From positions 109,648-173,647 of the forward strand of contig CAZULC010000001.1 in NCBI GenBank assembly GCA_964621165.1: a stretch of DNA of 64,000 bases. Reading direction: 5' to 3'. This document shows, one piece after another, positions 2,235 to 24,955 of the stretch; within the stretch, counting starts at the first letter, position 1, and the number at the start of each line of letters is the position of its first letter. This DNA is from an uncultured Ruminococcus sp. GTDB lineage: Bacteria; Bacillota; Clostridia; Oscillospirales; CAG-272. The translations under genes and the position numbers were made by a program. The notes beneath the pieces were generated by a model. It saw only the letters and a program-made list of their open reading frames with translations. It did not search any database and was not told the origin of the DNA.

Positions 2235-2253
2235 AGCATTCTCCCCATCTCAT

Positions 2254-4401
2254 TCACCCGCCGTTTTTCTCAACCCACTCAACCGCGTCATCCCTGTAGT
2301 CCTCGATTACTTCCCCGTCTTCGATAAGCACATCCCCTATTACCTCAAGAAATACAGTGTTCACCCGGTCCGTCAGCTCACCTTCGTATATCCCCGCCTC
2401 TCGCGCATACTGCCGGAATCTCCCATCTAAAGCCGCTTTAACAGCACCAAGAATCACCCAATCTACAACATTCCCGGCATCCCCACCATCTCCGCCCGAT
2501 CCAATTGCCACCGTATCCCCACCGACTTCATCAGCCGCCATAGACAAGTCCGCATCTTCCTCAGCCACCACCAGCCGCTCCGTGTTCACCCATGACTCAC
2601 GCTCAATCGCCTCGGCCGCAGCTACATCAAACCCCGCCGTCTCTGCCTCGTAGTTCGCCATGTAGCCCTCCGGCATGTACTTCTCGTCCAAACTCTTCTT
2701 CCGCTTTGCACCTGACTTCTCCAAAACCGGAGCAAAGTATCGGTCTATCACATCCGCGTCTCGTATGTCGACCTGCTTCGCCAATAACTTCGACTTTAAC
2801 CCGTATGCCTCGCGTACCTTGTTCTCCGAATACTTTATTGCTTTGGTCATAATGTCCCGGGTGCTCTCAAGCCGGATGCAGGACGATAACTCAAGCTCAA
2901 TCCGCTTCTTCGAACGAATCGACGCAACCGCTCCTACGTAGGAATCCCGCACCATCCTGTATGTCCGGCCAAACCCAAATATCCCGCGCCGCCCCTCATA
3001 CTGGGACTTAAGTACCGCCGCCACAGCCCCCGGAATCAACTCGTCGTATTCGGACTTGTACTGAGTGTAATACCTGCTCGTCTTGTAGTCGTAATCCGAC
3101 ATGGAGTAGGTGAATACGTCGGTCAGCGAACGGTATAGCCGAACCTCGTCACCTGAATATTCCCGGAATATGCCGTCAAGATAAAACTCCTTTATCTGCG
3201 AACGCGCAACTATCTCCGGTAAATACGGTATAAGCCCCGACGGTACACTTATCTCGTGTATCAGACAGTAGTCCGCAAGCCAGTCGCTTAAATTGCACAT
3301 GAATAACGGGTACTTGTCCCGAAAATCACGCTGATACTTCAATAATAACGCGGTCAGTACCTCAGCTCGCCGGTTGTTTTCACCTGCGTCACCGTCCGGC
3401 TCGTTTATCAGCTCAAATACATATAATTGAATGTACGAAAGGTCGCACTCCGGATACTTTCCGTGAGCTATGCACTCCTTCACCCAGTCGTAATACTCTA
3501 TTTGACTGCGGGTCATGTGACTGAACTGGGGGACATAGGAGAAAAACTTCACCTCGGGTATGTCCACGGTGTATGGGTAACGGGATACCCGCTTCCGGCT
3601 CACCTCAACGTCCTCCGCAAATCGGGAGTAAAAATCCGTCTCCGATGACCAGTCCTTTATCGTGACCCCCTTGATGAACGCACCGCCCGGCTCGTATTTC
3701 ACCTCACGCTGAACCGTACTCCCGTCAGTGTTCCCGCCCCGCCTTAATCGGGATTGATCGCCGCTGTCACCGACTCCGACACGCCTCTGCTTCCTTGCAC
3801 GGGAGTATGAACCGTAGGAGTACCCCGACACCGACCTCTGCCCGTCAACCGTCCTGATAACCCTGCCGCTGCTCCCGACGTCCCTGTTATCCTCGCCTCC
3901 TATCAAAACCGTAACCGGCTTCTTCTCCTTCTTCTCGCCGGAGGATGAATCGTCTTTTGCCTTGATTGCCTCGATCTCCTTCACAAGCTTGCTCACACCA
4001 TTGTAAAGAAGAGTCTTTCCCATTTCCGGATCGTACTCGGAATCACGCTTTGGTATGGCTTCACGGGAATATACGGCCTTCTCTTCAATTTCACTTTTCC
4101 CGCCGCCCAAATCCACCTTGACGCGCTCAACATCCGCCACATCAAGGGATCCGGGTGAAAACGACGGCTTCGAGTACGTCTTCTTTCTCGGCTCGCCCAT
4201 GTCCCAGAAGTCCCCGTCGTCAAAATCCCGCCATACCTCCCGGGACGTCTTTACTTTGCCGTCTTCTGAGGGAACACGCTTTTCTTCGACGGCTACGTTT
4301 TCTTCGACTTCTTCGCTTTTTTCGATTTCTTCGTTTATAATCTGCTCAGCTTCACCGGATTTATCTCCCGCCGGAAAGTTTTTTTCATCCGCCATGTTCA
4401 T
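2254..4401 (-). CDS. sngA: TerB-N / TerB-C domain protein (Shango SngA-like)
   Basis: The central region FFSYVPQFSHMTRSQIEYYDWV..YIQLYVFELINE is TerB-N-like. The C-terminal region LDGRFRQYAREAGIYEGELTDRVNTVFLEVIGDVLIEDGEVIEDY is TerB-C-like. Start moved from 4422 to the ATG at 4401, behind GGAGTGGGAGG. Confidence 0.7.
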   Translation of the reverse strand: MNMADEKNFPAGDKSGEAEQIINEEIEKSEEVEENVAVEEKRVPSEDGKVKTSREVWRDFDDGDFWDMGEPRKKTYSKPSFSPGSLDVADVERVKVDLGGGKSEIEEKAVYSREAIPKRDSEYDPEMGKTLLYNGVSKLVKEIEAIKAKDDSSSGEKKEKKPVTVLIGGEDNRDVGSSGRVIRTVDGQRSVSGYSYGSYSRARKQRRVGVGDSGDQSRLRRGGNTDGSTVQREVKYEPGGAFIKGVTIKDWSSETDFYSRFAEDVEVSRKRVSRYPYTVDIPEVKFFSYVPQFSHMTRSQIEYYDWVKECIAHGKYPECDLSYIQLYVFELINEPDGDAGENNRRAEVLTALLLKYQRDFRDKYPLFMCNLSDWLADYCLIHEISVPSGLIPYLPEIVARSQIKEFYLDGIFREYSGDEVRLYRSLTDVFTYSMSDYDYKTSRYYTQYKSEYDELIPGAVAAVLKSQYEGRRGIFGFGRTYRMVRDSYVGAVASIRSKKRIELELSSCIRLESTRDIMTKAIKYSENKVREAYGLKSKLLAKQVDIRDADVIDRYFAPVLEKSGAKRKKSLDEKYMPEGYMANYEAETAGFDVAAAEAIERESWVNTERLVVAEEDADLSMAADEVGGDTVAIGSGGDGGDAGNVVDWVILGAVKAALDGRFRQYAREAGIYEGELTDRVNTVFLEVIGDVLIEDGEVIEDYRDDAVEWVEKNGG

Positions 4402-4439
4402 GCCTCCCACTCCTTCAAACATTAGTTCGTTAATATCTT

Positions 4440-7185: not shown

Positions 7186-7327
7186 CACGTTGTTGTAAAA
7201 AGTTTAGGTCAAGCCTTTTCAAAGGCTTGTAGGATTCAAAGGGACAAAGTCCCTTGTCGACGACCGCAGTCGCCGAAACATCCCAAGACTTCTAAAGAGT
7301 TCCTCTTTTGGTTCTTTGCTCCTCGAT
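7186..7327 (+). repeat. F1 repeat, copy 3 (3' end truncated)
   Basis: CAAGCCTTT-TC-AAAGGCTTG, GGGAC-AAA-GTCCC, TCGACGAC-CGCA-GTCGCCGA, AAAGAGTTCCTCTTT, ending at GCTCCTCGATA. Confidence 0.9.
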
Positions 7328-7550
7328 ATCAGGTTCGACTACGTTGAAAGGCAAATCCACCTCCCCCATAGCCTACCTCGAGGGTATCTACGTCGCCGAA
7401 GAGTATAGAAACCACGGCTGGGCAAGGGAAATGGGCTGCACCGAATTCGCAAGCGACTGCGAACACGACAACGCCGCCAGCCTGAATTTCCACCTCGCCG
7501 TAGGATCCGAGGAAGTAAAACGTCTAATCTGCTTTAAAAAAGACCTGTAA
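7328..7550 (+). pseudogene. Remnant of an AAC(6')-like GNAT acetyltransferase (C-terminal ~70 codons only)
   Basis: ..IAYLEGIYVAEEYRNHGWAREMGCTEFASDCEHDNAASLNFHLAVGSEEVKRLICFKKDL*. The N-terminal half is absent, and the A-motif to GCTEFASD spacing is shorter than I expect for the family. It abuts the truncated F1 copy. Confidence 0.55.
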
Positions 7551-7672: not shown

Positions 7673-8797
7673 TCATTCCCGCTTTACCTGAAAAACCGGC
7701 ACCGCTGACTTATTTCCTATGTATATCGCCGACGCCGGCTTTATTCCCCCGCTTGTGTAAACATAAACGTTCGTCTGCGTAACCGCCAATTCGGAACCGT
7801 ATACCCAGTTTGACGAACGGCCATATACGGAATTCACAGGAACCGCCCTCACTCGGTACCTGACCCTGCTCCAGCCGTGCTCGGCCATGTCCGTAAACGA
7901 AACCGACTCGCCACTGTATATCAAACCGTATGATTCTCCATCAACCGACCGCTCAAGCTCGTATACCCTGCCTGACATTTCAAGATTGTCGATTGGCACG
8001 GACCAGCTTAACTTCACCGAAGCTCCGGCCGTCGGCTCGCTGTATGTAAAATCATAGGGCGAAAATAATGTGTAGGCTGGCTGCGCAGTGAACACGGGCG
8101 TGTTGACCTCGGCTATGCCTATGTAGTCCTCCAGTCCCGCCTCGGGAGTCGAGTATAACGCCGCAACTCCACGGTAACGGCATGTGTCATCCGTGTTGAA
8201 GGCTATGGAATACGACGCGGACCCCGACGAACCCATCCTTCCGCTCTCACGCACAGTCCGTACCTCGGTCCCGTCTATCACCGAACGGTTGAGAGTCTCG
8301 TATACCATAATCAGACTGCACCACATTCCCGCGTTTTCCGATACCGAAGCCGGAACCTGCGACTGCCAGTATATCGAAACGTCGTCTCGAAGCCGCACAC
8401 CATATAAACGAAAATCAAACTCCGGCGCCGGATCAGTGTAACTCCCCTTCCACTTTATAACGTACCCGTCGGCAAAATCATCAGCGAGATACTTCACCCG
8501 ACAGCCGATTGTCAGCTCCTTCACCCCGCCGTCATACGCAAAGTCAACCCCAACTTCCGAATCAAACTTGTCCACAATGACATACTTCTTCTCGCCGTTG
8601 TACGTAACCGGAACTTCAATCGAATAGTTGTAGTAGTACCCCTTGGGAACCATCGGCTCAAGACTCACGTATAACCTTTCACCGTCAGTCTTCAGCCGAA
8701 GCTGCACGTAGGTGTTCTTGTCAATGTCCTCACCGTAACACCCGCGTAAAATCATCTCTCCGCAGGAAATATATAAAACCTTCATCTTCTCCTCCAT
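7673..8797 (-). CDS. Phage tail-fibre/host-recognition-position protein with a C-terminal Fn3-like segment
   Basis: 374 aa and the last gene of the module. C-terminal VKLSWSVP..YELERSVDGESYGLIYSG..YRVRAV resembles an Fn3 domain. An alternative start at 8785 lies behind GGAGGAG. Confidence 0.4.
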   Translation of the reverse strand: MEEKMKVLYISCGEMILRGCYGEDIDKNTYVQLRLKTDGERLYVSLEPMVPKGYYYNYSIEVPVTYNGEKKYVIVDKFDSEVGVDFAYDGGVKELTIGCRVKYLADDFADGYVIKWKGSYTDPAPEFDFRLYGVRLRDDVSIYWQSQVPASVSENAGMWCSLIMVYETLNRSVIDGTEVRTVRESGRMGSSGSASYSIAFNTDDTCRYRGVAALYSTPEAGLEDYIGIAEVNTPVFTAQPAYTLFSPYDFTYSEPTAGASVKLSWSVPIDNLEMSGRVYELERSVDGESYGLIYSGESVSFTDMAEHGWSRVRYRVRAVPVNSVYGRSSNWVYGSELAVTQTNVYVYTSGGIKPASAIYIGNKSAVPVFQVKRE

Positions 8798-8895
8798 TTT
8801 CCGCCATAGTCATTGCCGCCGCCCCATCCTCAGCTCAAATTCCCGCTGGAATATAATCCCTCTCCAGCATTCCTTCCCCACCACGCACCACTGCA

Positions 8896-9597
8896 CTACT
8901 CCGCCAAAAGAATGAAAACTTCCCCTTCCTTAAGGGTAGTCGGCATAACTGTGCCATAGGAAATGTTTCTCACCGCAGAAGCACCGGTTTCCTCAGCCGC
9001 CGCCGTCAGCTTTCCCGTCATGATCCCGCCGCTCCTCTTCAGATAAGCAGAAGCTGCAGAACCGCCGAGCATGTTCGCATTCTGAGCCAGTGCAACGGAG
9101 GACAGAGCGTCAATCGTACTCGTCACAATTCCGCATTTGCCGCCGTCAGTGCGCGTGTCCGAAATCATGGCAGACGTAACCGAATCAGACCCGGTGGGTA
9201 CACTCACCTCAGCCAGTACCAGATCCTTTATGCTGTCGCTTGTCACCGGTGAGTCCGTCGTCGCACATAAAGTGAATTCCCCCGCCGGAACGTTCAGCCG
9301 GAGAATGACATTGTACTCCCCGCCCGGACTCAGGGTCAGAGTCAGATCCTCCTTCTGCCACGCCATGTATCCGCGTACCCACGCAACACCCGCCTGTGCC
9401 TTTATTTTCATCCCGCCGCCGGGAATAATTTTGAAACTGTCCTCACCAAAAATCCCGTCGGAGTAAAAGCATGAAATCAGCTTCGCGAAAAACGCGGAAT
9501 CCACAGCCTTGTTCCCACGCGGAAATCCGCCTACAGTCTCCTCAACTGTAGTGGAATCAAATAACCCTCCGTATACCGGAGTTGAAATTGTTGCCAT
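8896..9597 (-). CDS. Phage tail fibre / receptor-binding-like structural protein
   Basis: 233 aa, MATISTPVYGGLFDSTTVEETVGGFPRGNKAVDSAFFAKL.., positioned after the tail-tip gene. GAAAGAAAGGA RBS. Confidence 0.45.
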   Translation of the reverse strand: MATISTPVYGGLFDSTTVEETVGGFPRGNKAVDSAFFAKLISCFYSDGIFGEDSFKIIPGGGMKIKAQAGVAWVRGYMAWQKEDLTLTLSPGGEYNVILRLNVPAGEFTLCATTDSPVTSDSIKDLVLAEVSVPTGSDSVTSAMISDTRTDGGKCGIVTSTIDALSSVALAQNANMLGGSAASAYLKRSGGIMTGKLTAAAEETGASAVRNISYGTVMPTTLKEGEVFILLAE

Positions 9598-9633
9598 ATG
9601 TTAATCATCCTTTCTTTCACCATAACCGCCATC

Positions 9634-10725
9634 TCACCCGATCGTCTCACGGATAACGTCGGCAAGCTTCACCGTCTCGCCAAAGCAGGGGAGAATCCTG
9701 ACTCCGCCGTACTCGCATACCACGTCAACCCCGGTGAGCCTCATGCCGGCCTGAAGCCCCGTCTCAACGTCACATACGTCGCACACGTCCCCGAGGAAAT
9801 AGTCCCGCCCGTACTCCGGAACAAGGGAACTGCCGCATTCCGCCGAAACATACACCGACGCCGGATATTTCGCGAGAAGCTCTTCCCCTCTCTGACGAAG
9901 CGCTGCCGCGTATTCATCCGTATCCCCATAATCCGCCGGACGCACATCCGAGGCCTTCTTGTAAATCTCAGCCCTCCTTGAATAGCCCGCGTCCCCTGAA
10001 CCTTCCATCGGTTCAACCTCAACCACAGTCCCGTCCGAGCCTTCGATGTACGCGTGATTCTTCATCTTCGCCGAGTTCTTCTCGTAACTCAGGGAAAATA
10101 TGTTCCCAAAGGAAGAGGAAAACACCGCCCTCTCAGCACCGGACTCAGCCGAAGCAGCAGCCCCGTCGGATGAACGGTCGGCGCCCCGCACGATCCTCAT
10201 CACTGGCCGGTTCGTTTTGTAGTCAAGCTCCACCACATAGGATGCACCAAAGGGCTTGAGTACGTTGTAGAGCCAGTCCGATAACTTGTCGTAGTTCCAC
10301 GTGAGACTGACCCCGCCGGACAGTGGAATCCTCGCGCTCCCTTCACGGTCAACCTCAACCCCAAGTGAGCGCAGGTTCTCCTCAGCCTTGTCAAGCACAG
10401 CGGAAGACAGTTCCCCCTGAGCCGAAATCCCGCCCTTGCCAAGAACCAGCCTGTCGCCGAGAACCCCCTCAAGCAGCTCGCCTCCTGCCTCAAGATCCCC
10501 GCTGATGCCGCACCGCATGTATAAAATCCGCCCGCACAGGCATTTCCCCCGCTCGTAACCGCTTCTCACATAAACCGCACGGGTCAGCTCAGCCCACCTG
10601 TACCGGGGCAGATGAAGAACAAAGCTCCCCGCCTCGTAGTACCTCTCGGAAAACACAGCCGAGGTAAAGTCCTCAACCGGCCCCGTAATCAAATCAAACT
10701 TCCCGTCAAGAAAATATAACTCCAT
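9634..10725 (-). CDS. Phage minor tail protein (ReqiPepy6 Gp37-like, tail-tip position)
   Basis: 363 aa, MELYFLDGKFDLITGPVEDFTSAVFSERYYEAGSFVLHLP.., immediately downstream of the Dit-position gene. Confidence 0.55.
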   Translation of the reverse strand: MELYFLDGKFDLITGPVEDFTSAVFSERYYEAGSFVLHLPRYRWAELTRAVYVRSGYERGKCLCGRILYMRCGISGDLEAGGELLEGVLGDRLVLGKGGISAQGELSSAVLDKAEENLRSLGVEVDREGSARIPLSGGVSLTWNYDKLSDWLYNVLKPFGASYVVELDYKTNRPVMRIVRGADRSSDGAAASAESGAERAVFSSSFGNIFSLSYEKNSAKMKNHAYIEGSDGTVVEVEPMEGSGDAGYSRRAEIYKKASDVRPADYGDTDEYAAALRQRGEELLAKYPASVYVSAECGSSLVPEYGRDYFLGDVCDVCDVETGLQAGMRLTGVDVVCEYGGVRILPCFGETVKLADVIRETIG

Positions 10726-10760
10726 AAATCAAACTTCCCCAAAAATAAAGTCCGGACGGG

Positions 10761-11624
10761 TCAGATTCCGTAGTAAATCGGCGAAAACTCAAGCTGAGCG
10801 TCAATGTACTCCCCGCCACAGTCGCATAAAACGGCAACCTCACTCACACCAGCCGGAAGGGAAAAGAACTCGCTTCCCCGGTCAAAGGAAAAATACCTCT
10901 CCCCGTCAACCAAAACCGACTTGCGCCGCTCACGTGTGTCAATCACCAGCTCATGGCCGTCTCCAAGGGTCAGTGGACACCGCACATACTTCTCTCCCAG
11001 ACGTATTCCCGGGTTCACGACCTCCCCGCCTGACGCCCTGATTCTCGCCACAATGCCGCACTCACCGTCGCCGGAGTTTGAAACCCTCGCCCGGTCCGTA
11101 GTCCTGTACATTCCGCCAACCGTACCCGCATCCGCCATGAGATTCAGGGGAAACGTCAGAATCGGAGCCGCGTCACGGAACTGCACCTTGATTCCCTCGG
11201 CTTCCTCAAAGTAAACGGAGGGAGAAATAAAGCTCACCTCAGCCTCGATGACTCCGCCAAGGGACGACTCACGCCTGAATTCAGCTTCTCCAGCCGGAAG
11301 AGCCGAAATCCTCCTTGCCTTGCCGTACATCATAACGTCAATCATAACCTCGCAGGATGGGTTCAGCATGGAGACCAGCTTCCGCCGAATCAGATCCGCG
11401 GCCTCTCCCATTCCGTCAAGCTCAAAGACAAGGGTCATTTCCCGCTCGGCAAAACGCCGCCTGACAGCATAACCGCCGACCCCTGAGGCATAGGAGCTGA
11501 CAAGAACGTCAAATCCGGTGCAGTCAAACCCCGCCATGCCGTCCTCAACCAAATGCCCCTCCCCGTCCGGAGAAATAATAAACTCATCCCCGCCGGACGA
11601 CAGAACTATTTTGTAATCCACCAT
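10761..11624 (-). CDS. Siphovirus distal tail protein (Dit-position)
   Basis: Directly after the TMP. Start moved to the ATG at 11624 (MVDYKIV..) behind GGGAGGA. Confidence 0.55.
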   Translation of the reverse strand: MVDYKIVLSSGGDEFIISPDGEGHLVEDGMAGFDCTGFDVLVSSYASGVGGYAVRRRFAEREMTLVFELDGMGEAADLIRRKLVSMLNPSCEVMIDVMMYGKARRISALPAGEAEFRRESSLGGVIEAEVSFISPSVYFEEAEGIKVQFRDAAPILTFPLNLMADAGTVGGMYRTTDRARVSNSGDGECGIVARIRASGGEVVNPGIRLGEKYVRCPLTLGDGHELVIDTRERRKSVLVDGERYFSFDRGSEFFSLPAGVSEVAVLCDCGGEYIDAQLEFSPIYYGI

Positions 11625-11764
11625 AAAATCCTCCCATAAACCCAAATTTCACCCATCCCACCCCAGATTCCCCCGCTAAATCAGCCGAGCCAACAACCCC
11701 ACCAACCACTGTAAACTCAAGCTCACCTGAACCACCCCATGCCCCACTCAGCCGCCGTCACAGC

Positions 11765-12634
11765 TTATCGCCGGAACAAATCCTCGCTTTCACGCCTGAT
11801 TTTTCTCGCGGTCTCGTATGGGGAACTGTCGCTGTCACGGAGATATATGTTCTGTACATAACTCTTTCCGCCAGCATCGAACGAAATGCCGGACCTGACG
11901 CTTCCTGTGCCGTATTCCCCCGCCGCACGCGCCTGACCCGCACCAAGGGACAACGGAGAGCCTGCGCCCGACGATGAAGCCAAGGACTCAAAAATACCGC
12001 CGGAAAGCGTGGATACAGCCTCGCCCACATATGACCCGCCGCTCAGAATGCCGTCAGCAATGCCCCGGGATATCATAACGCCGACCTCGTCACGCATGAG
12101 AGCCGACGGTGATTGAATTCTGAAAAACGACTTCACGGCAGCCTCAGCTTCCGAGGACACCTGTCGAATTGCCGCCACAATCTCAGCTCCGGCCGCGTAA
12201 ATTCCCGAGGCAATTCCAGACATCATGTTTGAGCCGATTGAAGACCAGCTTCCGCCGGAAAAAGCTGAGCCCGCATTTTGAGCAGTGCTTCCCGCCGCAC
12301 TCACTACCCCCGAACCGCCTGAGGTGAAGCCGGAAAGAAGACTGCCCGCTGCCGCCTGACCACCGGCAAACCATCCGGCCGACGTAAAGCCTGACACCGC
12401 AGAGTTCGCAAGCTCCGTCATGGCCGCACCCACGCTCTCAGAAGAAGCGCTGATGGCACCCGATATCTCGTTAAGCATTGCGGTAATGGTGTTACCAACC
12501 CCGCTGTCCCCCGTAAAGGCCAAAGTCTCATTCAAACGGGTCCCAAGGGCCACAAGCTCGCTCTCCACCATAGCCGCCGAAGCCGCAATTGAAGAAGTAT
12601 CAAGACTGACCCCGATTACAACCGAACCATCCAT
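11765..12634 (-). CDS. Tape measure protein, unusually short (289 aa)
   Basis: Ala/Gly/Ser-rich. Has the FRIQSPSALMRDEVGVMISRGIADGI motif typical of TMPs. Lies after the two chaperone-position genes. Confidence 0.6.
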   Translation of the reverse strand: MDGSVVIGVSLDTSSIAASAAMVESELVALGTRLNETLAFTGDSGVGNTITAMLNEISGAISASSESVGAAMTELANSAVSGFTSAGWFAGGQAAAGSLLSGFTSGGSGVVSAAGSTAQNAGSAFSGGSWSSIGSNMMSGIASGIYAAGAEIVAAIRQVSSEAEAAVKSFFRIQSPSALMRDEVGVMISRGIADGILSGGSYVGEAVSTLSGGIFESLASSSGAGSPLSLGAGQARAAGEYGTGSVRSGISFDAGGKSYVQNIYLRDSDSSPYETARKIRRESEDLFRR

Positions 12635-12691
12635 AAATAAACCTCCATTTTCTGTCTCCCACCCCGCCCAATCAAACCCACGAACCGCAGC

Positions 12692-13282
12692 TCACTCCCT
12701 GATCCTCACCGCCGCTTTGGCACGGCGAACCCTGCGCCGCAGCTCATCATCACGTATCCCGCCAAGGTCAGCCCGACGCAGACTCACAACCCGCATGAGA
12801 ACCGTGGACTCGGGCAGAGCAGAAAGAAGCGCACAGAATTTCCACCAATGCAGTGAAGCCGCGTCCAAGTCAATGCCGTAGGCCTCGTAAAACGAAGCGA
12901 AAATCAGCTCGCTGTCGTAAGCAAAGTCAAACTCACGCTCCTTCAGCCTGCCCAGTGACGCGGAACTCTTGTCCTTCCCCGACTCAGACCCGCCGGAACG
13001 CCTCTTCACCTTCCCGCAGGAGAGGAACCATACCGCTTCCCCCAAAAACTCATCGTAAAACCCAGCCCCAAGCCGCCTTTTGGCCTCAAGCAGAGCCGCA
13101 TTGTCCTTTACCGTAAGCCCGATTATCACCTCAGCCTTGCAGATTGGGGAAATCTCCTCCTCGAGAGCCTGCAGGACCATAATCCACCGCCGAAAGTCCG
13201 GCTCCACCGCAGTCTCAACCCCGCCAAGCACCAGACGGTCCGGAAGAGAGTCGCATATAAACGGTATCTTTCCCCGCCTCAT
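12692..13282 (-). CDS. Phage Gp15-family protein (tail assembly chaperone position)
   Basis: 196 aa, MRRGKIPFICDSLPDRLVLGG..DFRRW... ATGA start/stop overlap with the upstream gene at 13282. Confidence 0.55.
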   Translation of the reverse strand: MRRGKIPFICDSLPDRLVLGGVETAVEPDFRRWIMVLQALEEEISPICKAEVIIGLTVKDNAALLEAKRRLGAGFYDEFLGEAVWFLSCGKVKRRSGGSESGKDKSSASLGRLKEREFDFAYDSELIFASFYEAYGIDLDAASLHWWKFCALLSALPESTVLMRVVSLRRADLGGIRDDELRRRVRRAKAAVRIRE

Positions 13283-13689
13283 CAGCCGTTTGCCACGGAG
13301 TCACCGGACGTGCCGGGGATACCGATGCGGGAGCAGAACTCAGCCTTGACCCTGTCGCCGGCCGCCTTCATTTTGTTTATCTCGTCGGTTATGTAGCCAA
13401 AAAATGAAGCCAATGCCGAGGTGTAGTCGAGAATGTTTCCACCGCCTCCGCAGATGTCCATGGCCGCCTCAACTCCGAACACTGACGCGAAGAAGTCCTC
13501 GATTATCTCGCAGTTGCGCCTGAGACGACTGGCAACCTCGGCCTTGCCAACGTCCCCTCCGGCCTTCTCCTCAAGCTCACCAAGTCCGGCGAGTAATACG
13601 TCAAGAGAGTCCGCAAGGGATGAGTACCTGTCGTAGTCGAGTATGTCGCACTCGTAACCGCGTCCGCCGTAATTCCAAATGTGTTCCAT
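13282..13689 (-). CDS. Tail assembly chaperone-position protein
   Basis: 135 aa, acidic, between the major tail gene and the Gp15-like gene. GAAAGG RBS. Confidence 0.4.
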   Translation of the reverse strand: MEHIWNYGGRGYECDILDYDRYSSLADSLDVLLAGLGELEEKAGGDVGKAEVASRLRRNCEIIEDFFASVFGVEAAMDICGGGGNILDYTSALASFFGYITDEINKMKAAGDRVKAEFCSRIGIPGTSGDSVANG

Positions 13690-13837
13690 AAAAACCGCCT
13701 TTCAGCTCCCACCCGGAGCAAAATAAAATGATTGTAAATGATTAAATATAATTAATTAACGACCAGCAAAACAAAAGTCTTACTAACCCCTCAATTCAAA
13801 CAAAACAATACCCACTGCAATATATCCAATAAATAGA

Positions 13838-13885
13838 TTAGTTTGAAGTTTTTGCCAAGCTTCTTCCAAGAAGCGTCCCGCATCC
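13838..13885 (+). repeat. Family-2 (F2) repeat, solo 3' module M5 (copy J) inside the phage module
   Basis: AGTTTGAAGTTTTTGCCAAGCTTCTTCCAAGAAGCGTCCCGCATCCCC aligns with the M5 consensus TTTTAAAGTTCTTGCACAGCTTCTTTCAAGAAGCGCG. Confidence 0.6.
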
Positions 13886-13909
13886 CCCGTACCCTCGTCC
13901 CCGTCTCCC

Positions 13910-14392
13910 CTACTTCTCGGGGGTGAAGACTGAGGTGGACTTTACGAACGTGCCGGGGATTACGTCGCTCACGGACTTCATGGAACCGGTGTAACAGAGC
14001 GCGTCACTGCCTTCGCCGCATTCGTCCGGTATGACCGAATATTCACGCTTTACCGCATGATATACACCGGACGTGTCCGTTTCGTCAAATAAGTCCACCG
14101 TGATTATCTCAACCCGGGCGCCTGACCCCGTCAGCTCACGGTCAGTTATATTCCGTATTTTGTCGATTACAGGATTGCCGGAGTAAACCTCAAACTCGTA
14201 GTCAATCACCGGCGCGTATCCCGTTACGTCAGTGCGCTTCGTCACCTCGTGTATGTACCGACGCTGATAACTGACCGCGTTTTTCGACTCCGTAAAGTCC
14301 GTGAACCCTTCCCCAATCAATGCCCAGACCGGTGACTCCATCGTTCCTACATTCATGTAATGCTGCCTGTCCGCACGCTTAACTATTGCCAT
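13910..14392 (-). CDS. Major tail protein
   Basis: 160 aa, MAIVKRADRQHYMNVGTMESPVWALIGEGFTDFTESKN.., upstream of the chaperones and TMP. GAAAGAGAGG RBS. Confidence 0.6.
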   Translation of the reverse strand: MAIVKRADRQHYMNVGTMESPVWALIGEGFTDFTESKNAVSYQRRYIHEVTKRTDVTGYAPVIDYEFEVYSGNPVIDKIRNITDRELTGSGARVEIITVDLFDETDTSGVYHAVKREYSVIPDECGEGSDALCYTGSMKSVSDVIPGTFVKSTSVFTPEK

Positions 14393-14466
14393 ATCTGTTT
14401 TCTGCCTCTCTTTCTATCTTTCTATCTTTTCTGTTTCATTGTAATCAATCCACCCCTTCGCAGGGC

Positions 14467-14850
14467 TTATCTCACGCGCATGCGCATCATGTACGACGCA
14501 CGGTATTCCTCCTCGCCGCTTTCGTATATCGCTGACTTCACCGCTCCTGATATAACGCGGAACTCGTAATCCCCGCCCGCATAATCACGCATAGCCAAAG
14601 CCGCACGACGGAAATATTCCCCCGCTCTCAGCCTGTCAGCAACCGCACGCCCCGGTACACGCACACGTATCTCAAACGGCACGTCAATAACACCAGTCCC
14701 GTCCACATATTCCTTCACCTGATTGAACGCTCCCGATATCCAGAGCGAACCAACCCCATCCCGCCAGCTCTCCGGTATAACCTCAACCCCTATCCCGTTG
14801 AGTATCCCTGAAATAACCTCGGCAAAATTTACTTCACATCCGTAAATCAT
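14467..14850 (-). CDS. Head-tail joining / minor-capsid-family protein
   Basis: 127 aa, between the connector genes and the major tail gene. Confidence 0.4.
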   Translation of the reverse strand: MIYGCEVNFAEVISGILNGIGVEVIPESWRDGVGSLWISGAFNQVKEYVDGTGVIDVPFEIRVRVPGRAVADRLRAGEYFRRAALAMRDYAGGDYEFRVISGAVKSAIYESGEEEYRASYMMRMRVR

Positions 14851-14869
14851 ATTAACTCTACTCTCACCC

Positions 14870-15203
14870 TCACTTCAGCATGGCGCCGATAACCGCCTCA
14901 GTCCACTGACCCATGCACTCGTCCTTCGCGGCTTCAAACCACCTCGCACATGCCCGGGGATGTACCTTTTTGTTGAAAGTACGGCTCGCATAATAACAGT
15001 CGTGTGCATAATCCGCCGCCCATATAACACGCCCGTCCCCTGCCGCACGACCGGATTTGCATAATCTTTCCGGTCCTGTATGGCACAAACGGCTCGCATG
15101 ATGACAATACCGCCTCCTCCAGTACCCGCGACGCGTCCCTCTGACGACTGCTTAACTTCTCAGCTAACCCGCCTGCGTCAACTTTAACATTGAATTTAAC
15201 CAA
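14870..15203 (-). pseudogene. Minor-capsid/head-tail connector gene split by a 1-nt frameshift
   Basis: Frame a: MVKFNVKVDAGG..EPFVPYRTGK. Frame b continues: LCKSGRAAGDGRVIWAADYAHDCYYASRTFNKKVHPRACARWFEAAKDE... The junction is in ACCGGAAAGATTATG (plus-strand coordinates ~15061-15074). Confidence 0.6.
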
Positions 15204-15249
15204 TCAACCACTTCCTTAACCAAAACAAAACCAAATCCCTTAACCATTC

Positions 15250-15600
15250 TCACTTGAGAACCAAACGCACATGGGATAATTCTCCCGCATCTTTGTAGTA
15301 TGACGCCTCGGCTACCCGGTACTCATGCCCGCCAATCACACATAAGTCTCCCTTGGCCGCATCGGGAAATTCCGCCTCAATGTAACCGCCGCCGGATACG
15401 CACTCCTCACATATGCTCATGGAGCAGAAGAAATATACCTTGATTCCTCCGACCTCACGCCAGTCCTCCTCGAGTATCCGCCGCCCGCCAATGAATACCC
15501 CCGATAAACGGTAGTCACGGTAAAGCGCACTCCATCCCTCGCCGTCTCCTATAAACCTGCGGTAAATAACCTCGGACTTCATAATCCCATCGTAACTCAA
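15250..15600 (-). CDS. Head-tail adaptor-position protein
   Basis: 116 aa with a TTG start in the ORF track. Called on position only. Confidence 0.35.
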   Translation of the reverse strand: MSYDGIMKSEVIYRRFIGDGEGWSALYRDYRLSGVFIGGRRILEEDWREVGGIKVYFFCSMSICEECVSGGGYIEAEFPDAAKGDLCVIGGHEYRVAEASYYKDAGELSHVRLVLK

Positions 15601-15665
15601 TAATCCACCCCCAGACTAACCCAAAACCCAAATTCCCGCCCTAAATCAACCTTCATTCAGGAACA

Positions 15666-15944
15666 TCAGACCCAGCGGCATAATAATCCCGCACTTCTCA
15701 AAACAGCCGCCGCGTCCGGTGAAATAACGCCGCCGCAGACCGATATCCCCTCGCTCACATCACGGTAAACCACACTCACATCCCCCGCCTGACGGGATTT
15801 CACGTCCCGTCCGCTTGATGAATAGGCCCGCTGTAGATCCACTGCATCGTTGAACGCCCGAATCTGTTCCTCATCCATGTCACACCCCCGAAACGGGTAA
15901 ATCAAAGATAGAAGCAATGCCTCCGCACTCCTGCCTTCATCCAT
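15666..15944 (-). CDS. Small head-tail connector-position protein
   Basis: 92 aa, GAGGTGA RBS, directly downstream of the capsid gene. Confidence 0.35.
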   Translation of the reverse strand: MDEGRSAEALLLSLIYPFRGCDMDEEQIRAFNDAVDLQRAYSSSGRDVKSRQAGDVSVVYRDVSEGISVCGGVISPDAAAVLRSAGLLCRWV

Positions 15945-16129
15945 AATATCACCTCGTCAAAACCAAATTTTACCAAAATTCAACCAAATCCAAACCAAAA
16001 TTAACCAAATTCCCGTCATGACTTCACCATAGCTCAACCAAAGCTTGACTAAACTCTGACCCGAGCCGTATCCCGCCCCTCTCCCGCCGAATTGTACCCC
16101 AGCCGTAAAGTCATGCCAGCTCAGCCAAA

Positions 16130-17221
16130 TCAGCCAAGATAACGGCAGGCCAGCTCGGGGTAAACCGTCTTGAAGGCGTAAAGTACATCCATGGAAAGTA
16201 TGTCGCGCTTGTACTTCATGTCGTACCCTCTCACAACCCGCAGGGAAATGCCGTTGTAGGTGGTAACATATGACTCAACACCGGCCGGAGCGGCAAGAGG
16301 TCGGGTGATAAAGGCAAACGCGTCCGGATGGAAAATCAGGTTCGCCGCATGGGACGGAAGCGCCGTAATCACACTGGATGATGTCAGATTGGGCTTGCCG
16401 CTCAGCTTCACCGTCATGTCCTCGCCGGATATCACAGCGTCCTCGAGCACCGCATATGAACCCGCACCCTCAACAGTAATAATGTCGCCCTTCTTCAGCC
16501 CTGAACCGGAATTTTTGAATACCGCAGTTCCCGTACCCGCGGAAGTTCCGACAAGAGTCAATGTGCCGCTTGAGCCGGAAACATGATCGCAGACCGCCTG
16601 GGACATGTAGTTGTCAATGCCGAAAATGCGCCCGATGGAACCGGTTCTCAACGCAGTGGTGGACCCGCACTTGTCTGCGTTCACTATGGCCGGAACCTGC
16701 TTCAGCTTCGCGGCAGCCATTGGATTCCAGACGGCGCAACGATATCCCGCAGGAACTTTCTGGTTGTCAAGCGCCAGAGCCGCCTCGGAAAGATCGTCAA
16801 GCCCGTCGGGAGTCACACCGGCCGTACCTGCGTATGTGGGAATGTCCTTGTATAGGGATAAACCCTCGCCGTTGATCTTTTCGGCTAAAGCGGCAGCCGC
16901 AGGCTCAATGAACATGCGCATGACCGAATCAAAGTCGCAGGCGGACTCAATGGCGCCAACCTGCATGTCAACAGTGGCAAGATGGTCAAGCTTCACGTCA
17001 ATGGTGTTGTTCTGTAAGGACTGAGCCTCAATGCCCACGGACTCGTCAAACTCCGACGCCATAAGCTTCACCGGACAACGAACGGAGACAACATCCCCCT
17101 GCTTGGCAGCAGAACCGGCGATGCTTTCCTTGTAGATAAGATTCGGGAAAACTAAATTGTCAATGAGACGGGGAAGAGCCTCACGGGCAATGCGCTTAAC
17201 AGAAATATCAAATTTTGCCAT
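16130..17221 (-). CDS. Major capsid protein (P22-coat-like family)
   Basis: 363 aa, MAKFDISVKRIAREALPRLIDNLVFPNLIYKE.., follows the scaffold gene. GAAAGGAAG RBS. Confidence 0.7.
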   Translation of the reverse strand: MAKFDISVKRIAREALPRLIDNLVFPNLIYKESIAGSAAKQGDVVSVRCPVKLMASEFDESVGIEAQSLQNNTIDVKLDHLATVDMQVGAIESACDFDSVMRMFIEPAAAALAEKINGEGLSLYKDIPTYAGTAGVTPDGLDDLSEAALALDNQKVPAGYRCAVWNPMAAAKLKQVPAIVNADKCGSTTALRTGSIGRIFGIDNYMSQAVCDHVSGSSGTLTLVGTSAGTGTAVFKNSGSGLKKGDIITVEGAGSYAVLEDAVISGEDMTVKLSGKPNLTSSSVITALPSHAANLIFHPDAFAFITRPLAAPAGVESYVTTYNGISLRVVRGYDMKYKRDILSMDVLYAFKTVYPELACRYLG

Positions 17222-17281
17222 AATTAAAACTTCCTTTCAAAAATAAATAAAATGTAGACAGATATCAACACTACTAAACTG

Positions 17282-17470
17282 AATGTTGTCAGCCCAAAAG
17301 TTATAATCAACCTTTTCCAAAAGTTTGTAGGGTTCAAAGGGACAAAGTCCCTTTGTCGACTTCCGCAGAAGTCTAAATGCCAAGACTCAATAAAGAGTTC
17401 CTCTTTTGGTTCTTTTCCTCCTCGATAAAGGAGAAAAGAACAACAAATCCCCACGCACTCCCTCCCCTTC
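17282..17470 (+). repeat. F1 repeat, copy 4 (full), between the scaffold and capsid genes
   Basis: All hairpin modules are present, plus the shared 3' tail AACAACAAATCCCCACGCACTCCCTCCCC. Confidence 0.9.
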
Positions 17471-17532
17471 ATAAACTTATCCCCCACCCCAACCACCCAG
17501 ATTCAATCATACCCCCACCTCCGTCACCTGCT

Positions 17533-18042
17533 TCATATCCGCTTGACTTTCCTGTAGTACTCACCGTCGTCCAGCGAGTCCGCGTCTGCTATACCATTGC
17601 CGTGATTTAGCCCGCTCGAAAATACTACTTCCTTCTCCTCAGCCCCACTGAATAAATATGGCGCTGACTTCTTTAACTCGGTAAACTGCTCAGCTAACCC
17701 ATAAACTCCGTCCTCGCTGACCGTTACCTTGCTCATGTCTATAACCTTCGATACAATCTCACGGCTCTTCGCACCTGATCTGTCAAGCTCCCGCTCAAGA
17801 GCAGCATTGCACCTGACCTCACGTAACTTCAGCTCGTACCTGCCTTCAACTTCGCCAACGTCGCCTACCCTGACACCCGCTTCGGCCGCTTTGATTAAAA
17901 ATTCGTCGTAGGTTATGCGCCCGTCACCAAAAATCCCGCCTATCACATCCGGCTCACTCGCGCCCTGTGACATACCAGCTTCAACAGTAACTCCACCCAT
18001 AGCTTCACCGATAGAACCAACATTGACTTCATCTTCATTCAT
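17533..18042 (-). CDS. Phage scaffolding protein
   Basis: 169 aa, acidic and helical-looking, between portal and capsid. GGAGGGG RBS. Confidence 0.55.
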   Translation of the reverse strand: MNEDEVNVGSIGEAMGGVTVEAGMSQGASEPDVIGGIFGDGRITYDEFLIKAAEAGVRVGDVGEVEGRYELKLREVRCNAALERELDRSGAKSREIVSKVIDMSKVTVSEDGVYGLAEQFTELKKSAPYLFSGAEEKEVVFSSGLNHGNGIADADSLDDGEYYRKVKRI

Positions 18043-19414
18043 TTATTACCCCTCCAATCCACTTCGAACGGAACTCGTCCACCGTCATAACCCCGGCCTC
18101 TACTTCGCCAAGATCGGCTAACCGCCGACTGTCCGCGTCACTGAAATATGAGTCGTCAAAACTCATCTGTATGTCCGCACCTTCGTCTATCGCTAATCCG
18201 TAATAGTGTGCGCCGCACCATAATAACGCACGCGCTATAGATATGATAAAACTCCGCGCATTCCGCTGGTGCTTCACTAAATTCTGCCGCATGTCCTGCC
18301 GCTCTCCCATGTACTGAGTCGCAGTCAGCTTCACACGACCGTCTGTGTCAAAGGTGTAGTGATGTACGCCAAGCCCGCACCGAAAGGCTAAATAACTTAA
18401 CTGCCACTGAACAGCCGCCGCATTGTCACTTACCCTCAGGGACGGATTGTGCTCCGTTATCATCGGATTGTCCGTAAAATCCCCGTCGCCTAAGGTCACA
18501 AATAACTGCTGAGCTACGTCGTCAGGCGTTATCACATTCCCAAAATCATCTCGCTGAAGTAGGGACTGACTTAAAAATACCTTCTTCCCACCAAGCTTTA
18601 TGTCCCGACAGAAATTGTTGAAGGCTAAGTCAACTCCCTTTAAACAGTCGATAGCGTCCGCAAATACCGATACTCCCATCCCCGGACCTAACTCGCTCTC
18701 GTAATTGCTCTGTATGTTGGGCGTCAGTATGGCAAAAAATGGGATCTCGGAACCGGTGCGCATTACATCGGGGACTCCATCCAACGGAACCCGCTCCAGC
18801 CCGGCTGAGACTAAGTCTTCCTCACCGGAAAAATCAATTGAACTCGTACCGACCACTCCCGACGGCTTGTAGAGACTGTTGCGAATAACATATTGCCCGC
18901 CTTCGAGAATGTGTTCCTCACAGTAGATGTAATCCTCGCCCCGTCGGGTGAACTCAGAAATAAACCGCGCCTCAACTATTTTGCCGTTCACTACGCTGAT
19001 CGGATGAATGTGTAACGCATCAACATACTCAAACCGTATCTTCGACTTGCCACTCGCCGCTATCCTGCCGCCTTTTAGGGTAAAATTTTCAAGCCTTAAT
19101 AGTATGGCTCCCGTACCAAGCGCAAAAACACGCTCAGTTAATGTGTTCGCATTGCCCCAAAAATCGCTTTCCTCAAATACGCGGGAAATAAAAGCCGCTC
19201 CTGAATCGTCGGATATGCTTAGGGAACAACGGTCGTTGAAGATAAGCGAAGCCCAGTCCTCGCAGATTTTCTTCGCCATGTTCATGCGGTAAAGATCACG
19301 ACGGATCACACCACTGCCGCAGATGCTCTCATGGAACCGGTGGAAGGATGGATCAAACCCGCGCCACCATGAATCCCAGTATTTGATTAAATCACTACTC
19401 AAAATTACCTCCAT
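18035..19414 (-). CDS. Portal protein (SPP1 Gp6-like size and position)
   Basis: 459 aa, immediately downstream of the large terminase. Confidence 0.7.
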   Translation of the reverse strand: MEVILSSDLIKYWDSWWRGFDPSFHRFHESICGSGVIRRDLYRMNMAKKICEDWASLIFNDRCSLSISDDSGAAFISRVFEESDFWGNANTLTERVFALGTGAILLRLENFTLKGGRIAASGKSKIRFEYVDALHIHPISVVNGKIVEARFISEFTRRGEDYIYCEEHILEGGQYVIRNSLYKPSGVVGTSSIDFSGEEDLVSAGLERVPLDGVPDVMRTGSEIPFFAILTPNIQSNYESELGPGMGVSVFADAIDCLKGVDLAFNNFCRDIKLGGKKVFLSQSLLQRDDFGNVITPDDVAQQLFVTLGDGDFTDNPMITEHNPSLRVSDNAAAVQWQLSYLAFRCGLGVHHYTFDTDGRVKLTATQYMGERQDMRQNLVKHQRNARSFIISIARALLWCGAHYYGLAIDEGADIQMSFDDSYFSDADSRRLADLGEVEAGVMTVDEFRSKWIGGVINE

Positions 19415-19420
19415 AAATTA

Positions 19421-19611
19421 TGTAGAAGAATCTCCCCACCCTTAAACAAAACGTTGTCAGCCCAAAAGTTTGTAGGGTTCAAAGAGATGACGTCCCTTGT
19501 CGACTTCCGCAGAAGTCGAAATCCCCCAAGACTTCCAAAGAGTTCCTCTTTTGGTTCTTTGCTCCTCGATAAAGGAGAAAAGAACAACGAAATCCCCGCA
19601 CTCCCTCCCCC
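19421..19611 (+). repeat. F1 repeat, copy 5 (full), between the terL and portal genes
   Basis: GTAGAAGAATCTCCCCACCCTTAAACAAAACGTTGTCAGCCCAAAAGTTTGTAGGG...GGAGAAAAGAACAACGAAATCCCCGCACTCCCTCCCCC. Confidence 0.9.
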
Positions 19612-19653
19612 TTCACCAGTTCCATAAAGGCGCCCCCACCCATCCCCCTTTTT

Positions 19654-20961
19654 TCACCCCATGTACCGCTCAATCGAATACTCCATGGCGTCAAGAATAT
19701 CAATATCGCTCGTGAAATTGTCAAGCCGCTTGTCGCCTGAGGCTGACTCGTCCCATAAGGCACTGCTTAACCCGCTGATTAACTCCGTACACCCGCTTGA
19801 TACATGAAACCGACCTTGGGCCATAAGCTGATTCACAAAACTGATGCGGTCAACTATCGGCTTCTTTATGCTGTCAAGTACCTGTATCACCTCGCCATAA
19901 CGGCGTAAATGCTTCCGTAACCCGCTGATTAAATACTGCGCCTCGTTGTCCGCAAATATGTACCGGATATTCACCCCAGGGTAACTCCGCCGTAAATCAT
20001 GTATGAACTCAACCACGGCTCCGTTTATCCGCTCGGGATCTATCTCACCTTTCTCTCCGCTTACTATGCTCTCCCTGAGTATCACAAACTCAAGCTGACC
20101 GCATACCCGACGTATCCCTGTTCCGACTATCGCTGTCTTCGACCTGTTCCCGCCAAAGTCTATCCCTATGATGATAAAATCTACCCGACCTGCTTCATCT
20201 GCCGTAAATTCAGCCGGACTGTCCGCAAACCGCCGGTATATTATCCCCTCGGCCGCACATCGCTCTCCTAAAATGTCTCGCCGGTACCATATGGAACCTT
20301 TGTCGTACTGCGCCTCTATCTCGCTGAGCCGCTCTTCACTGATCACCGGATTGTCGTATATCGTGAAATGACCGTAGTTGTAAAATCCGTCCCCGACTTC
20401 TCCCTGCTCTGCCATCTCACGGTACCTGTCAATGTGATCTCTGTATATCGCGGCTTTCGGCGTGGATGGATTCAAATCCCAGAATATCCGCCGATCACGG
20501 GCCGCCAATGTCCGGTTCAACGCCTCTTCAATGAAATTTGACGCATGTAGATTTATCTCCGTGGCTATCCACATGCCGTAGGAATTTCCCCGAATGCGCT
20601 TGTATGAATCGGAATTCTTGCCGCCTGCAAATATAATGTGCTTCTCCCCCGCCGCAGTCTTCACACACATGGAATCGTTGCCGCGGTACTTCTCCCACTT
20701 GAACCGCCCCGCAAATATCCGCTCAAGCCCTAATCCGTTGCAGTCGCCTATGTTTATCTTCGCGTTGCCAAGAGTAGAGCCGGTAGCAAGATGTATCCTG
20801 TCCGGTGACTTCTCAAGCAGGGACGCAAATACAAATACATTGTCTATGGTCTTGCCCGCCCGGACGGCTCCCTCGGCTACGTTTATAACCGATGTGTACG
20901 CCCGCGCCATGTATTTCCTGTGCTTGATTCCAAAATTGTAGTCCAAACCATCATCTCCCAT
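19654..20961 (-). CDS. Terminase large subunit (PBSX/XtmB-type)
   Basis: 435 aa. Walker A in VAEGAVRAGKTID. The C-terminal half is nuclease-like. Confidence 0.85.
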   Translation of the reverse strand: MGDDGLDYNFGIKHRKYMARAYTSVINVAEGAVRAGKTIDNVFVFASLLEKSPDRIHLATGSTLGNAKINIGDCNGLGLERIFAGRFKWEKYRGNDSMCVKTAAGEKHIIFAGGKNSDSYKRIRGNSYGMWIATEINLHASNFIEEALNRTLAARDRRIFWDLNPSTPKAAIYRDHIDRYREMAEQGEVGDGFYNYGHFTIYDNPVISEERLSEIEAQYDKGSIWYRRDILGERCAAEGIIYRRFADSPAEFTADEAGRVDFIIIGIDFGGNRSKTAIVGTGIRRVCGQLEFVILRESIVSGEKGEIDPERINGAVVEFIHDLRRSYPGVNIRYIFADNEAQYLISGLRKHLRRYGEVIQVLDSIKKPIVDRISFVNQLMAQGRFHVSSGCTELISGLSSALWDESASGDKRLDNFTSDIDILDAMEYSIERYMG

Positions 20962-21170
20962 CAGAATTCCCCCGTTCCCGCCCGCCCAGATAACCCGATG
21001 GAAAACGATATAAGTTTGGAGTGTGAAGAGTGGAGCTTATATTGTTGAGTCGCAAACCGTATCCCAATGAAGTACCGCTTCATGCTTGACCTCACCTCAA
21101 TCAAATTCGCCGGAGTATCGCTTGAACTGTTCCCCATTGGTTCACTTAATCCAGACCCACGCCGAACTGC

Positions 21171-21485
21171 TCACCCTTCCCCGAATAACTCCCGCCGGAT
21201 ACCGGATACTTCCGCGTCGGCTGAATTGCTGACTGCACCGGAATCACGTCCGATTATGTCAAAGTATAACCGTATCGCTGAAACATTCCCGCTCTCGGCC
21301 GCGTCAAGTAACGCACGCCATACTAGTGGAGCTTCAAATATCCCCGCTGACCGGCATAAGCTTAACCCCACCGCACCAGCCCCTGACTTGATTAACTCCC
21401 AGTACTCACTCACGCTTAACCCAAGCGACGAGAGAACTTCATCCGAATGTAACCCCCGCACCACCGTTTCTTCTCCGCTTTCCAT
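21171..21485 (-). CDS. Small terminase-like HTH protein
   Basis: Start moved to MESGEETVV.. (ATG at 21485) behind GAAAGGAAG. Carries LGLSVSEYWELIKSG and LLDAAESGNVSAIRLYFDIIG. Confidence 0.5.
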   Translation of the reverse strand: MESGEETVVRGLHSDEVLSSLGLSVSEYWELIKSGAGAVGLSLCRSAGIFEAPLVWRALLDAAESGNVSAIRLYFDIIGRDSGAVSNSADAEVSGIRRELFGEG

Positions 21486-21753
21486 CTGACCACTTCCTTT
21501 CACCTTGCCTAAATTGTACCATATCTGCCCCCTCCCTTTCATCCCCGCCAATTCCCATCTCACATTCATATTTTAAATCCAGTAAATCCTCCCATTTTCT
21601 CAGCCATTCTTACCCATTTCCCCCTTGATTCAAAAATCTCCTCGCCATACGTAAAATAAGCCTTAATCTCCAGTCCATATTTTGTTAACATTTCTACGCC
21701 AATAAAAAAAGCAACCTCATAATAAGATTGCCTCGTTTGTATTGATTTTTACC

Positions 21754-24820: not shown

Positions 24821-24849
24821 TTGACACACATCCGTTTTGGTGATATAAT
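24821..24849 (+). promoter_or_regulatory. Sigma-A type promoter upstream of the 24956 small gene
   Basis: TTGACA, 17 nt spacer, TATAAT. Confidence 0.55.
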
Positions 24850-24955
24850 AATTTCACCGAACATTTTTTCTTCTTAAATCTTCCACCCAACCATATTTTC
24901 ACCTGATTTTCCAGTTTTTAGTATAATTTTTAAAGAAAAGGGAAGATTCAATAGA

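Follow-up and report, generated by a model that had tools for sequence, protein, structure and literature searches.

The 64,000-nucleotide (nt) stretch of contig CAZULC010000001.1 (assembly GCA_964621165.1) analysed here, called the window and used for all coordinates below, carries on its minus strand a run of about 14 kb (7673-21485) with 17 collinear phage genes, from a small terminase through to two fibre-like proteins. Genes were assigned by Pfam and PHROG scans of the window proteins, which bore out an initial annotation of about 17 collinear minus-strand head, packaging and tail genes. Apart from the frameshifted third connector gene (c3), the other 16 are full length, in keeping with the earlier statement that all but one open reading frame (ORF) are intact. 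We consider the cluster to be probably a domesticated tailed-phage remnant, that is, a viriform or gene transfer agent (GTA)-like element which is vertically inherited and kept under selection, and not a prophage. The initial annotation had also preferred a domesticated element to a prophage, and this preference finds support in the prevalence of the cluster, its fixed neighbourhood, its co-divergence and purifying selection.

A collinear cluster was found in about 45 species-representative genomes from goat, sheep, deer, buffalo, horse, mouse and human gut, with terL identities of 54-69%, and collinearity was checked in full in nine congeners. Nineteen of the 24 sampled congeners have one copy of the capsid gene (55-79% identity), and one further congener, with a fragment of terL at the edge of a contig, brings the signs of the cluster to 20 of 24. 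A sporadic occurrence among close relatives had been named as a result that would speak against domestication; the element is near-universal instead. Within the family, the capsid gene is present in only 3 of 97 genera. In two congeners, G004 and G014, uvrA and its neighbours are present and the cluster was not found. The same search of the same genomes recovered the control gene pyrG in 11 of the 24 congeners and in 9 of 16 genomes of other families. As even this essential gene was missed in more than half of the congeners, the apparent absences of the cluster carry little weight. In another congener, G009, terL is truncated at residue 351, as it is in L075, where the truncated gene directly abuts the fibre gene fib2 beside pyruvate kinase; this arrangement identifies both as remnants of a deletion in situ.

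The chromosomal neighbourhood is shared as well. On the side of the last tail gene several congeners have uvrA, and beyond terS many have PHP, EamA and DUF1934 or pyruvate kinase; in the window genome uvrA is found 10 kb from the last cluster gene, with accessory genes between. The trees of the capsid and of the unlinked PyrG are congruent and have their supported splits in common. For species pairs with synonymous divergence (dS) below 1, the median ratio of nonsynonymous to synonymous substitution rates (dN/dS) is 0.12-0.35 in each of 15 genes, with the head, portal and terminase genes (0.12-0.19) among the most constrained; c3 and fib2 gave no pairs with dS below 1 and are outside this set. 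Overall, synonymous divergence is saturated, a distance over which reading frames under neutral decay would have been lost. The long residence under purifying selection that had been suggested is thus upheld by the dN/dS values, the PyrG-congruent tree and the shared neighbourhood, and the proposed comparison of synteny and dN/dS across relatives returned the same host neighbours in many congeners and constraint in all tested genes. In one metatranscriptome the tube-to-chaperone genes are represented by RNA contigs, all of them from relatives, which is a weak sign of expression.

The window contains no tRNA gene, and no att-type direct repeats were found to bracket the cluster, as had been noted for its ends. 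Family scans of the cluster and its flanks gave no integrase, repressor, replication or lysis genes. The flanks are indeed ordinary chromosomal genes. A GNAT remnant, an AMP-ligase fusion and a TerB/BrxD-like/DEAD operon follow fib2, and DUF1934, EamA, PHP, a regulator pair, unrelated host genes and pyruvate kinase follow terS. Integrase, lysogeny or lysis genes contiguous with the cluster, which would have changed its interpretation, were found neither here nor in the congeners whose flanks were read. The whole genome (96% complete) has only two tyrosine recombinases, both on other contigs, and a search with 885 ORFs of related prophages gave no second phage-like region in it. An intact temperate prophage was rejected, since integrase, repressor, replication and lysis genes and att repeats were lacking here and in the congeners read. 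A phage satellite, either a phage-inducible chromosomal island (PICI) or a capsid-forming PICI, was rejected as well, since tail genes are present and integrase and replication genes are not.

The description of the module as structural-only stands for integrase, repressor, replication and lysis genes, but the element is not strictly structural-only, because a phage-type pair of regulators, a zinc-ribbon protein and an ArpU-type activator, belongs to it and lies 3.4 kb away at 24956-25588. The zinc-ribbon protein gave weak PHROG matches to phage families without known function. The activator was matched by TIGR01637 phage_arpU (E=9e-7, below the model cut-off), by Pfam DUF1492 and by phrog_36 (E=8e-13). 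In deeper clades the pair immediately precedes terS and shares its strand, as is usual for the late activator of a phage, and one inversion, from the activator to DUF1934, would explain the layout in the window's clade. The secreted 240-aa protein encoded after the activator (25699-26421) was considered as a member of the element and rejected, as it is not conserved with it.

Comparison of the promoters of relatives revealed the probable control of this operon. The regulator promoter is a perfect consensus (scan score 12/12), and the predicted LexA-type box follows its -10 element. At the same position a perfect GAAC-N4-GTTC is found in L034, L044, L047, L065 and L070 and a one-mismatch box in L062, L059 and L058, and these eight relatives often have a second box in the spacer. 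A perfect box, an 8-base palindrome, was observed in 9 of 16 upstream regions versus about 0.002 expected per region. Across relatives, this putative operator keeps its place within the regulator promoter. A strict search of the window for CGAAC-N4-GTTCG gave nothing relevant, and the operator emerged only on comparing the relatives' promoters. The genome encodes its own lexA (contig C19:27161-27775), and both recA and lexA carry one-mismatch boxes.

The terS promoter of most relatives is conserved and consists of two TGGGAAAA repeats, a GGGAYGACA -35 element and a TG-extended -10 element. Direct TGGGAAAA repeats were observed just upstream of the -35 element, about 430-590 nt upstream of terL, in L040, L045, L047, L049, L054, L057, L062 and L066, with a LexA box between the -35 and -10 elements; these repeats may be binding sites of the ArpU-type activator. 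In the window, TGGGA repeats precede the -35 element of the candidate late promoter, the frame of which is kept, with no LexA box. A terminator is located between DUF1934 and terS and thereby isolates the structural operon from upstream transcription.

Table 1. Features of the element and associated sequences in the window (positions in nt; aa, amino acids).
Feature	Position	Strand	Evidence or remark
Small-terminase-position gene (104 aa, ATG at 21485)	21171-21485	-	conserved in relatives; weak PHROG match
Large terminase, terL	19654-20961	-	Terminase_3, phrog_2
Host dispersed repeat, portal-terL spacer	19415-19653	-	20 genome matches including itself; other listed copies 81-89% identical
Portal	18035-19414	-	SPP1_portal, phrog_533, E=3e-74
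Scaffold	17533-18042	-	Pfam/PHROG scans
Second host-repeat copy with spurious 90-codon ORF	17224-17496	-	repeat match
Major capsid protein, P22-coat-like	16130-17221	-	E=2e-38
Connector 1, head-tail adaptor-like	15666-15944	-	phrog_541, E=8.5e-4; conserved in relatives
Connector 2	15250-15600	-	conserved in relatives
Connector 3 (c3), Minor_capsid_2-like	14870-15203	-	frame split by frameshift
Connector 4	14467-14850	-	conserved in relatives
Tail tube protein	13910-14392	-	PDB 11ok_A and fold match
Chaperone-position gene, DUF6673-like	13282-13689	-	Pfam/PHROG scans
Chaperone-position gene, Phage_Gp15	12692-13282	-	Pfam/PHROG scans
Tape measure (289 aa)	11765-12634	-	tape-measure PHROG profiles
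Distal tail protein, Dit	10761-11645	-	Pfam/PHROG scans
Sipho_Gp37-like tail-tip protein	9634-10725	-	Pfam/PHROG scans
Two distal tail/fibre proteins (233 aa and 374 aa, the second being fib2)	7673-9597	-	PHROG/Pfam scan
Candidate late promoter of structural operon	21513-21542	-	-35 ATGAAA, 18-nt spacer, TG-extended -10 TACAAT
Regulator promoter	24821-24870	+	TTGACA 24821-24826; TG-extended TATAAT 24844-24849; LexA-type box
LexA-type box GAACATTTTTTC	24859-24870	+	one mismatch to GAAC-N4-GTTC (Gram-positive LexA box)
Zinc-ribbon protein (70 aa, CxxC...CxxC), first operon gene	24956-25168	+	homologues adjoin cluster in relatives
ArpU/RinA-type late-gene activator (119 aa)	25229-25588	+	TIGR01637, DUF1492, phrog_36

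The tail tube protein was firmly identified. A profile of 17 orthologues matches PDB entry 11ok_A, 'phage tail tube protein' (E=1e-16), and the structure model, with a predicted local distance difference test (pLDDT) score of 83, has a fold like the siphovirus tubes of NF5, 80alpha, lambda and SPP1. For the portal, no sequence relative was found in the PDB. The tape measure aligns to an internal-to-C-terminal segment of about 90-220 positions in PHROG profiles which are 1001-1681 positions long. The most variable gene is fib2, with 22-38% identity between congeners, and its product is a candidate for receptor binding. The cluster has a GC content of 52.8% versus a genome mean of 49.9%; foreign origin is not marked by base composition, since GC at third codon positions is within the host range.

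The sole broken gene, c3, has a one-base frameshift near 15061-15074, after ...PYRTGK, and is a single ORF in most relatives. The frameshift coincides with a short run rich in A and, in a metagenome assembly, may be an artefact of assembly rather than a mutation; none of the DNA sequencing runs searched for the cluster contained cluster sequence. The insertion of host intergenic repeats into the module, which had been noted before, is real. The repeat is about 200 nt long with about 20 matches in the genome, the other copies among the matches listed being 79-89% identical, and it is found at 7220-7328, 17252-17452 and 19420-19596, the last two between cluster genes. The 90-codon ORF at 17224-17496 has a homologue in no relative examined and was rejected as a gene, being a copy of this dispersed repeat. 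The spacer of 209 nt between terS and terL (20962-21170) is unique in the genome; in relatives terS and terL abut.

Lysis genes, which are missing from the cluster, were sought in the whole genome, as had been proposed, and the families covered by the search gave no lysis cassette. The genome contains five Amidase_3 genes, none of them in a holin-lysin cassette, and no Amidase_2 gene. A membrane or signal segment is predicted for four of the five, which stand among ordinary host genes. The fifth (C16:29243-29806, 187 aa), which lacks a signal peptide and adjoins trmD/rimM-like genes, is a possible cytoplasmic lysin, unlinked to the element. The genome-wide list of LexA-type boxes includes recA and lexA and no lysis candidate. 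In a sister genus a compact version of about 11 kb, without tape measure and chaperones, ends with an Amidase_3 gene (L068:12036-12932, L070:19173-20207) encoding 299-345 aa without a signal peptide. This terminal gene is an endolysin candidate, and no orthologue of it was found in the window's genome.

The nearest non-domesticated relatives, with capsids 51-54% identical, are from Mogibacterium, a Peptostreptococcaceae and a Firmicutes genome. They are true prophages, with DNA polymerase A, VapE-type primase, SNF2 helicase or methylase just upstream of terL. Moreover, they carry between portal and scaffold a Phage_min_cap2 gene of 515-618 aa, which is absent in the window cluster, and their tape measures are still open after 386-474 aa where the examined locus ends. 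In the Peptostreptococcaceae prophage, the Phage_min_cap2 protein (L077:13108-14652) has a C-terminal Ntox50 toxin domain. Among GenBank phages no close capsid relative was found, the best being 38% identical over 74% of the length, and in IMG/VR only four contigs have relatives.

The tape measure of most congeners has about 260-290 aa, and the 289-aa form is ancestral to the group. Three classes of the capsid-Dit interval were observed: intervals of 3.4-5.2 kb, which hold the tube and chaperone genes together with a tape measure mostly of about 260-290 aa, intervals of about 3 kb in which the tape measure is much shortened or none was detected, and intervals of 1.2-2 kb with no tape measure. 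The tree of terL, portal and capsid requires at least five changes between these classes, reduction or loss having arisen at least three times. In the lineages with a reduced or lost tape measure all other genes are intact.

Several known systems bear on the interpretation. Gut virus-like capsids commonly contain short random bacterial DNA, above all from Oscillospirales, and the responsible genes have so far been pinned down only for Faecalibacterium, in the podovirus-like FpGTA (PMC12946183). FpGTA of Faecalibacterium prausnitzii was proposed as a source of the short random host DNA in gut virus-like particles (Borodovich et al., Nat Commun 2026, PMC12946183). Both FpGTA and the window element have phage-derived TerS/TerL/portal/scaffold/capsid operons in gut Oscillospirales, are near-ubiquitous in their genus and have no integration or replication genes. 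FpGTA, however, is podovirus-like, and its genes form two operons at a distance of 125 kb, of which the second has baseplate, fibre, holin and endolysin. The window element is contiguous and siphovirus-type (tube, chaperones, tape measure, Dit) and has an ArpU-type activator, and no lysis genes were found for it in the genus. Faecalibacterium was absent among the best 80 terL relatives. Membership in FpGTA was rejected for the single contiguous siphovirus-type cluster, and the element is a different, siphovirus-type lineage, set apart by the description of FpGTA.

The likeness in size and content to the RcGTA cluster of about 15 kb, which had been pointed out initially, was confirmed. The RcGTA type of Alphaproteobacteria is likewise a head-tail cluster of about 14-15 kb with vertical inheritance, purifying selection, a short tail and lysis genes outside the cluster. 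Unlike it, the window element has a P22-coat-like capsid and a host in the phylum Bacillota, which points to independent domestication. RcGTA is under CtrA/GafA, in contrast to the predicted LexA-type operator and ArpU-type activator here, and packaging and transfer were demonstrated for RcGTA, whereas for the window element they are predicted. PBSX of Bacillus subtilis is also a defective phage-like element of a Gram-positive host; it is induced by DNA damage, as is predicted for the window element, and the window terL gives a weak PBSX-type Terminase_3 match. Nevertheless, the contractile tail, the dedicated repressor, the contiguous lysis cassette and the bacteriocin action of PBSX have no counterpart in the window element. 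A PBSX-like defective prophage was rejected, since no sheath, repressor or lysin family was matched and the tube is siphovirus-type. The Coprocola candidate GTA of mouse-gut Clostridia has a 14-kb core and a 3.6-kb lysis cluster (bioRxiv 10.64898/2026.07.08.737213). Compared by description, it shares with the window element a structural/terminase cluster of about 14 kb in gut Clostridia without integration or replication genes, and differs in the host family, Anaerotignaceae, and in its separate lysis cluster on the same contig.

As in GTAs and viriforms, the locus is a chromosomal head, tail and packaging cluster without integration, lysogeny or replication genes, and it is vertically inherited under purifying selection. 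We consider it a strong candidate for a new GTA lineage on the grounds of its gene content and conservation. The strong constraint on terminase, portal and capsid suggests that DNA-filled heads are kept by selection, which favours a GTA-like role over that of a tail-only bacteriocin. In the mechanism we propose, DNA damage would inactivate LexA, and the strong promoter of the zinc-ribbon/ArpU-type activator operon would thereby be freed. The activator would then turn on the weak late promoter before terS, the cell would build small capsids with a tail of about 40 nm, and terminase would fill these with cellular DNA by the headful mechanism. Release of the particles would require a lysis function, and none was found in this genus.

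A number of observations weigh against this interpretation. Every genome examined for the element is metagenome-assembled from an uncultured bacterium, and the element is known here only through its genes. No phage-type cassette of holin and endolysin, nor in that form the lysis function that GTAs and viriforms often encode elsewhere, was found with Amidase_3, Amidase_2 and the list of LexA-type boxes, other lysin and holin families not having been searched. The gene at the TerS position is weakly assigned, from its position, its conservation and one weak PHROG match (phrog_24579, terminase small subunit, E=0.0025); its model is all-helical with a pLDDT of 72, and a search by fold produced nothing significant, its top hit being 2ao9, a Bacillus phage protein, with E=1.2. 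In the window genome c3 is frameshifted. The LexA-type box of the window has one mismatch, and such a box is expected by chance about once per ten such regions; the box which about half of the relatives carry in the spacer of the terS promoter is lost in the window. Furthermore, the loss of the tape measure in several lineages could mean tail decay and not adaptation.

Some of these observations would also fit a window copy that is the inactive remnant of an element functional elsewhere in the lineage, decaying through the c3 frameshift and operator erosion. Taken together, the c3 frameshift and the one-mismatch LexA box suggest that the window copy may be weakened or newly inactivated; the absence of a box from the terS promoter, the unique terS-terL spacer and the repeat insertions agree with such decay, and real losses occurred in the genus, namely the G009/L075 deletion and the lack of the cluster in G004 and G014. 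We nevertheless regard inactivity as rather unlikely, given that the 16 other genes are full length, the regulator promoter is a perfect consensus and the A-rich run at the c3 frameshift leaves room for an assembly error. A function different from gene transfer would be that of a PBSX-like killer particle (phibacin), in which defective particles induced by the SOS response package some DNA and mainly kill or compete with related strains. The wiring is of the SOS type as in PBSX, the fastest divergence is that of fib2 (22-38% identity), as expected for strain-specific targeting, and the authors of the FpGTA study leave the same alternative open for FpGTA (PMC12946183). Yet the tail is short and non-contractile with no sheath gene, the dN/dS of head, portal and terminase (0.12-0.19) would be unexpected if the tail alone mattered, and lineages without a tape measure retain intact head and packaging genes, all of which makes a mainly killing role unlikely.

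It is very improbable that the cluster belongs, as its structural half, to an element that is still mobile, be it a temperate phage with modules elsewhere, a satellite helper or a recently spread site-specific remnant. True prophages of other Clostridia do have homologous head modules, and the four IMG/VR contigs with relatives are classed as 'viral'. Against mobility, the 96%-complete genome has no other phage-like region or linked integrase, att repeats are lacking, the gene tree follows the host tree and the divergence between species is as deep as that of host genes. The differences in the flanks are only rearrangements of host type, including the inversion that carries the regulator pair.

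Returning to the domesticated, GTA-like element as the preferred interpretation, we tentatively suggest, as a possibility that falls somewhat short of an even chance, a more specific history. Independently of the RcGTA type, PBSX and FpGTA, a siphovirus would have been domesticated into an SOS-triggered, ArpU-activated GTA. Fixation would date from the common ancestor of an uncultured rumen and hindgut radiation of Oscillospirales with at least three genera and about 45 species, and the tape-measure/tube module of the element would have been shortened or lost independently at least three times. If this is true, the element could supply part of the genetic basis of the GTA-type packaging of short host DNA in gut viromes, and the losses of tape measure and tube would show the evolution of long- to short-tailed particles. 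The locus is a candidate packaging system in abundant uncultured gut bacteria of herbivores and humans, with DNA damage and LexA as the predicted trigger and the ArpU-type activator as the predicted switch. Sister species with full, shortened and missing tape measures form a natural series that could reveal how a domesticated phage particle evolves when reproduction no longer needs infection.

Two further observations concern the flank between uvrA and the cluster. An operon on the minus strand (1-4422) encodes a TerB_N protein, a BrxC/BrxD-type ATPase and a DEAD helicase and has the look of a Shango-like defence system; this trio also adjoins uvrA in several congeners. Next to it, a xylose-isomerase-like TIM barrel (AP_endonuc_2) and an AMP-forming ligase are joined in a single ORF of 848 aa (4635-7181), and this ORF is absent at the equivalent position in the relatives examined.

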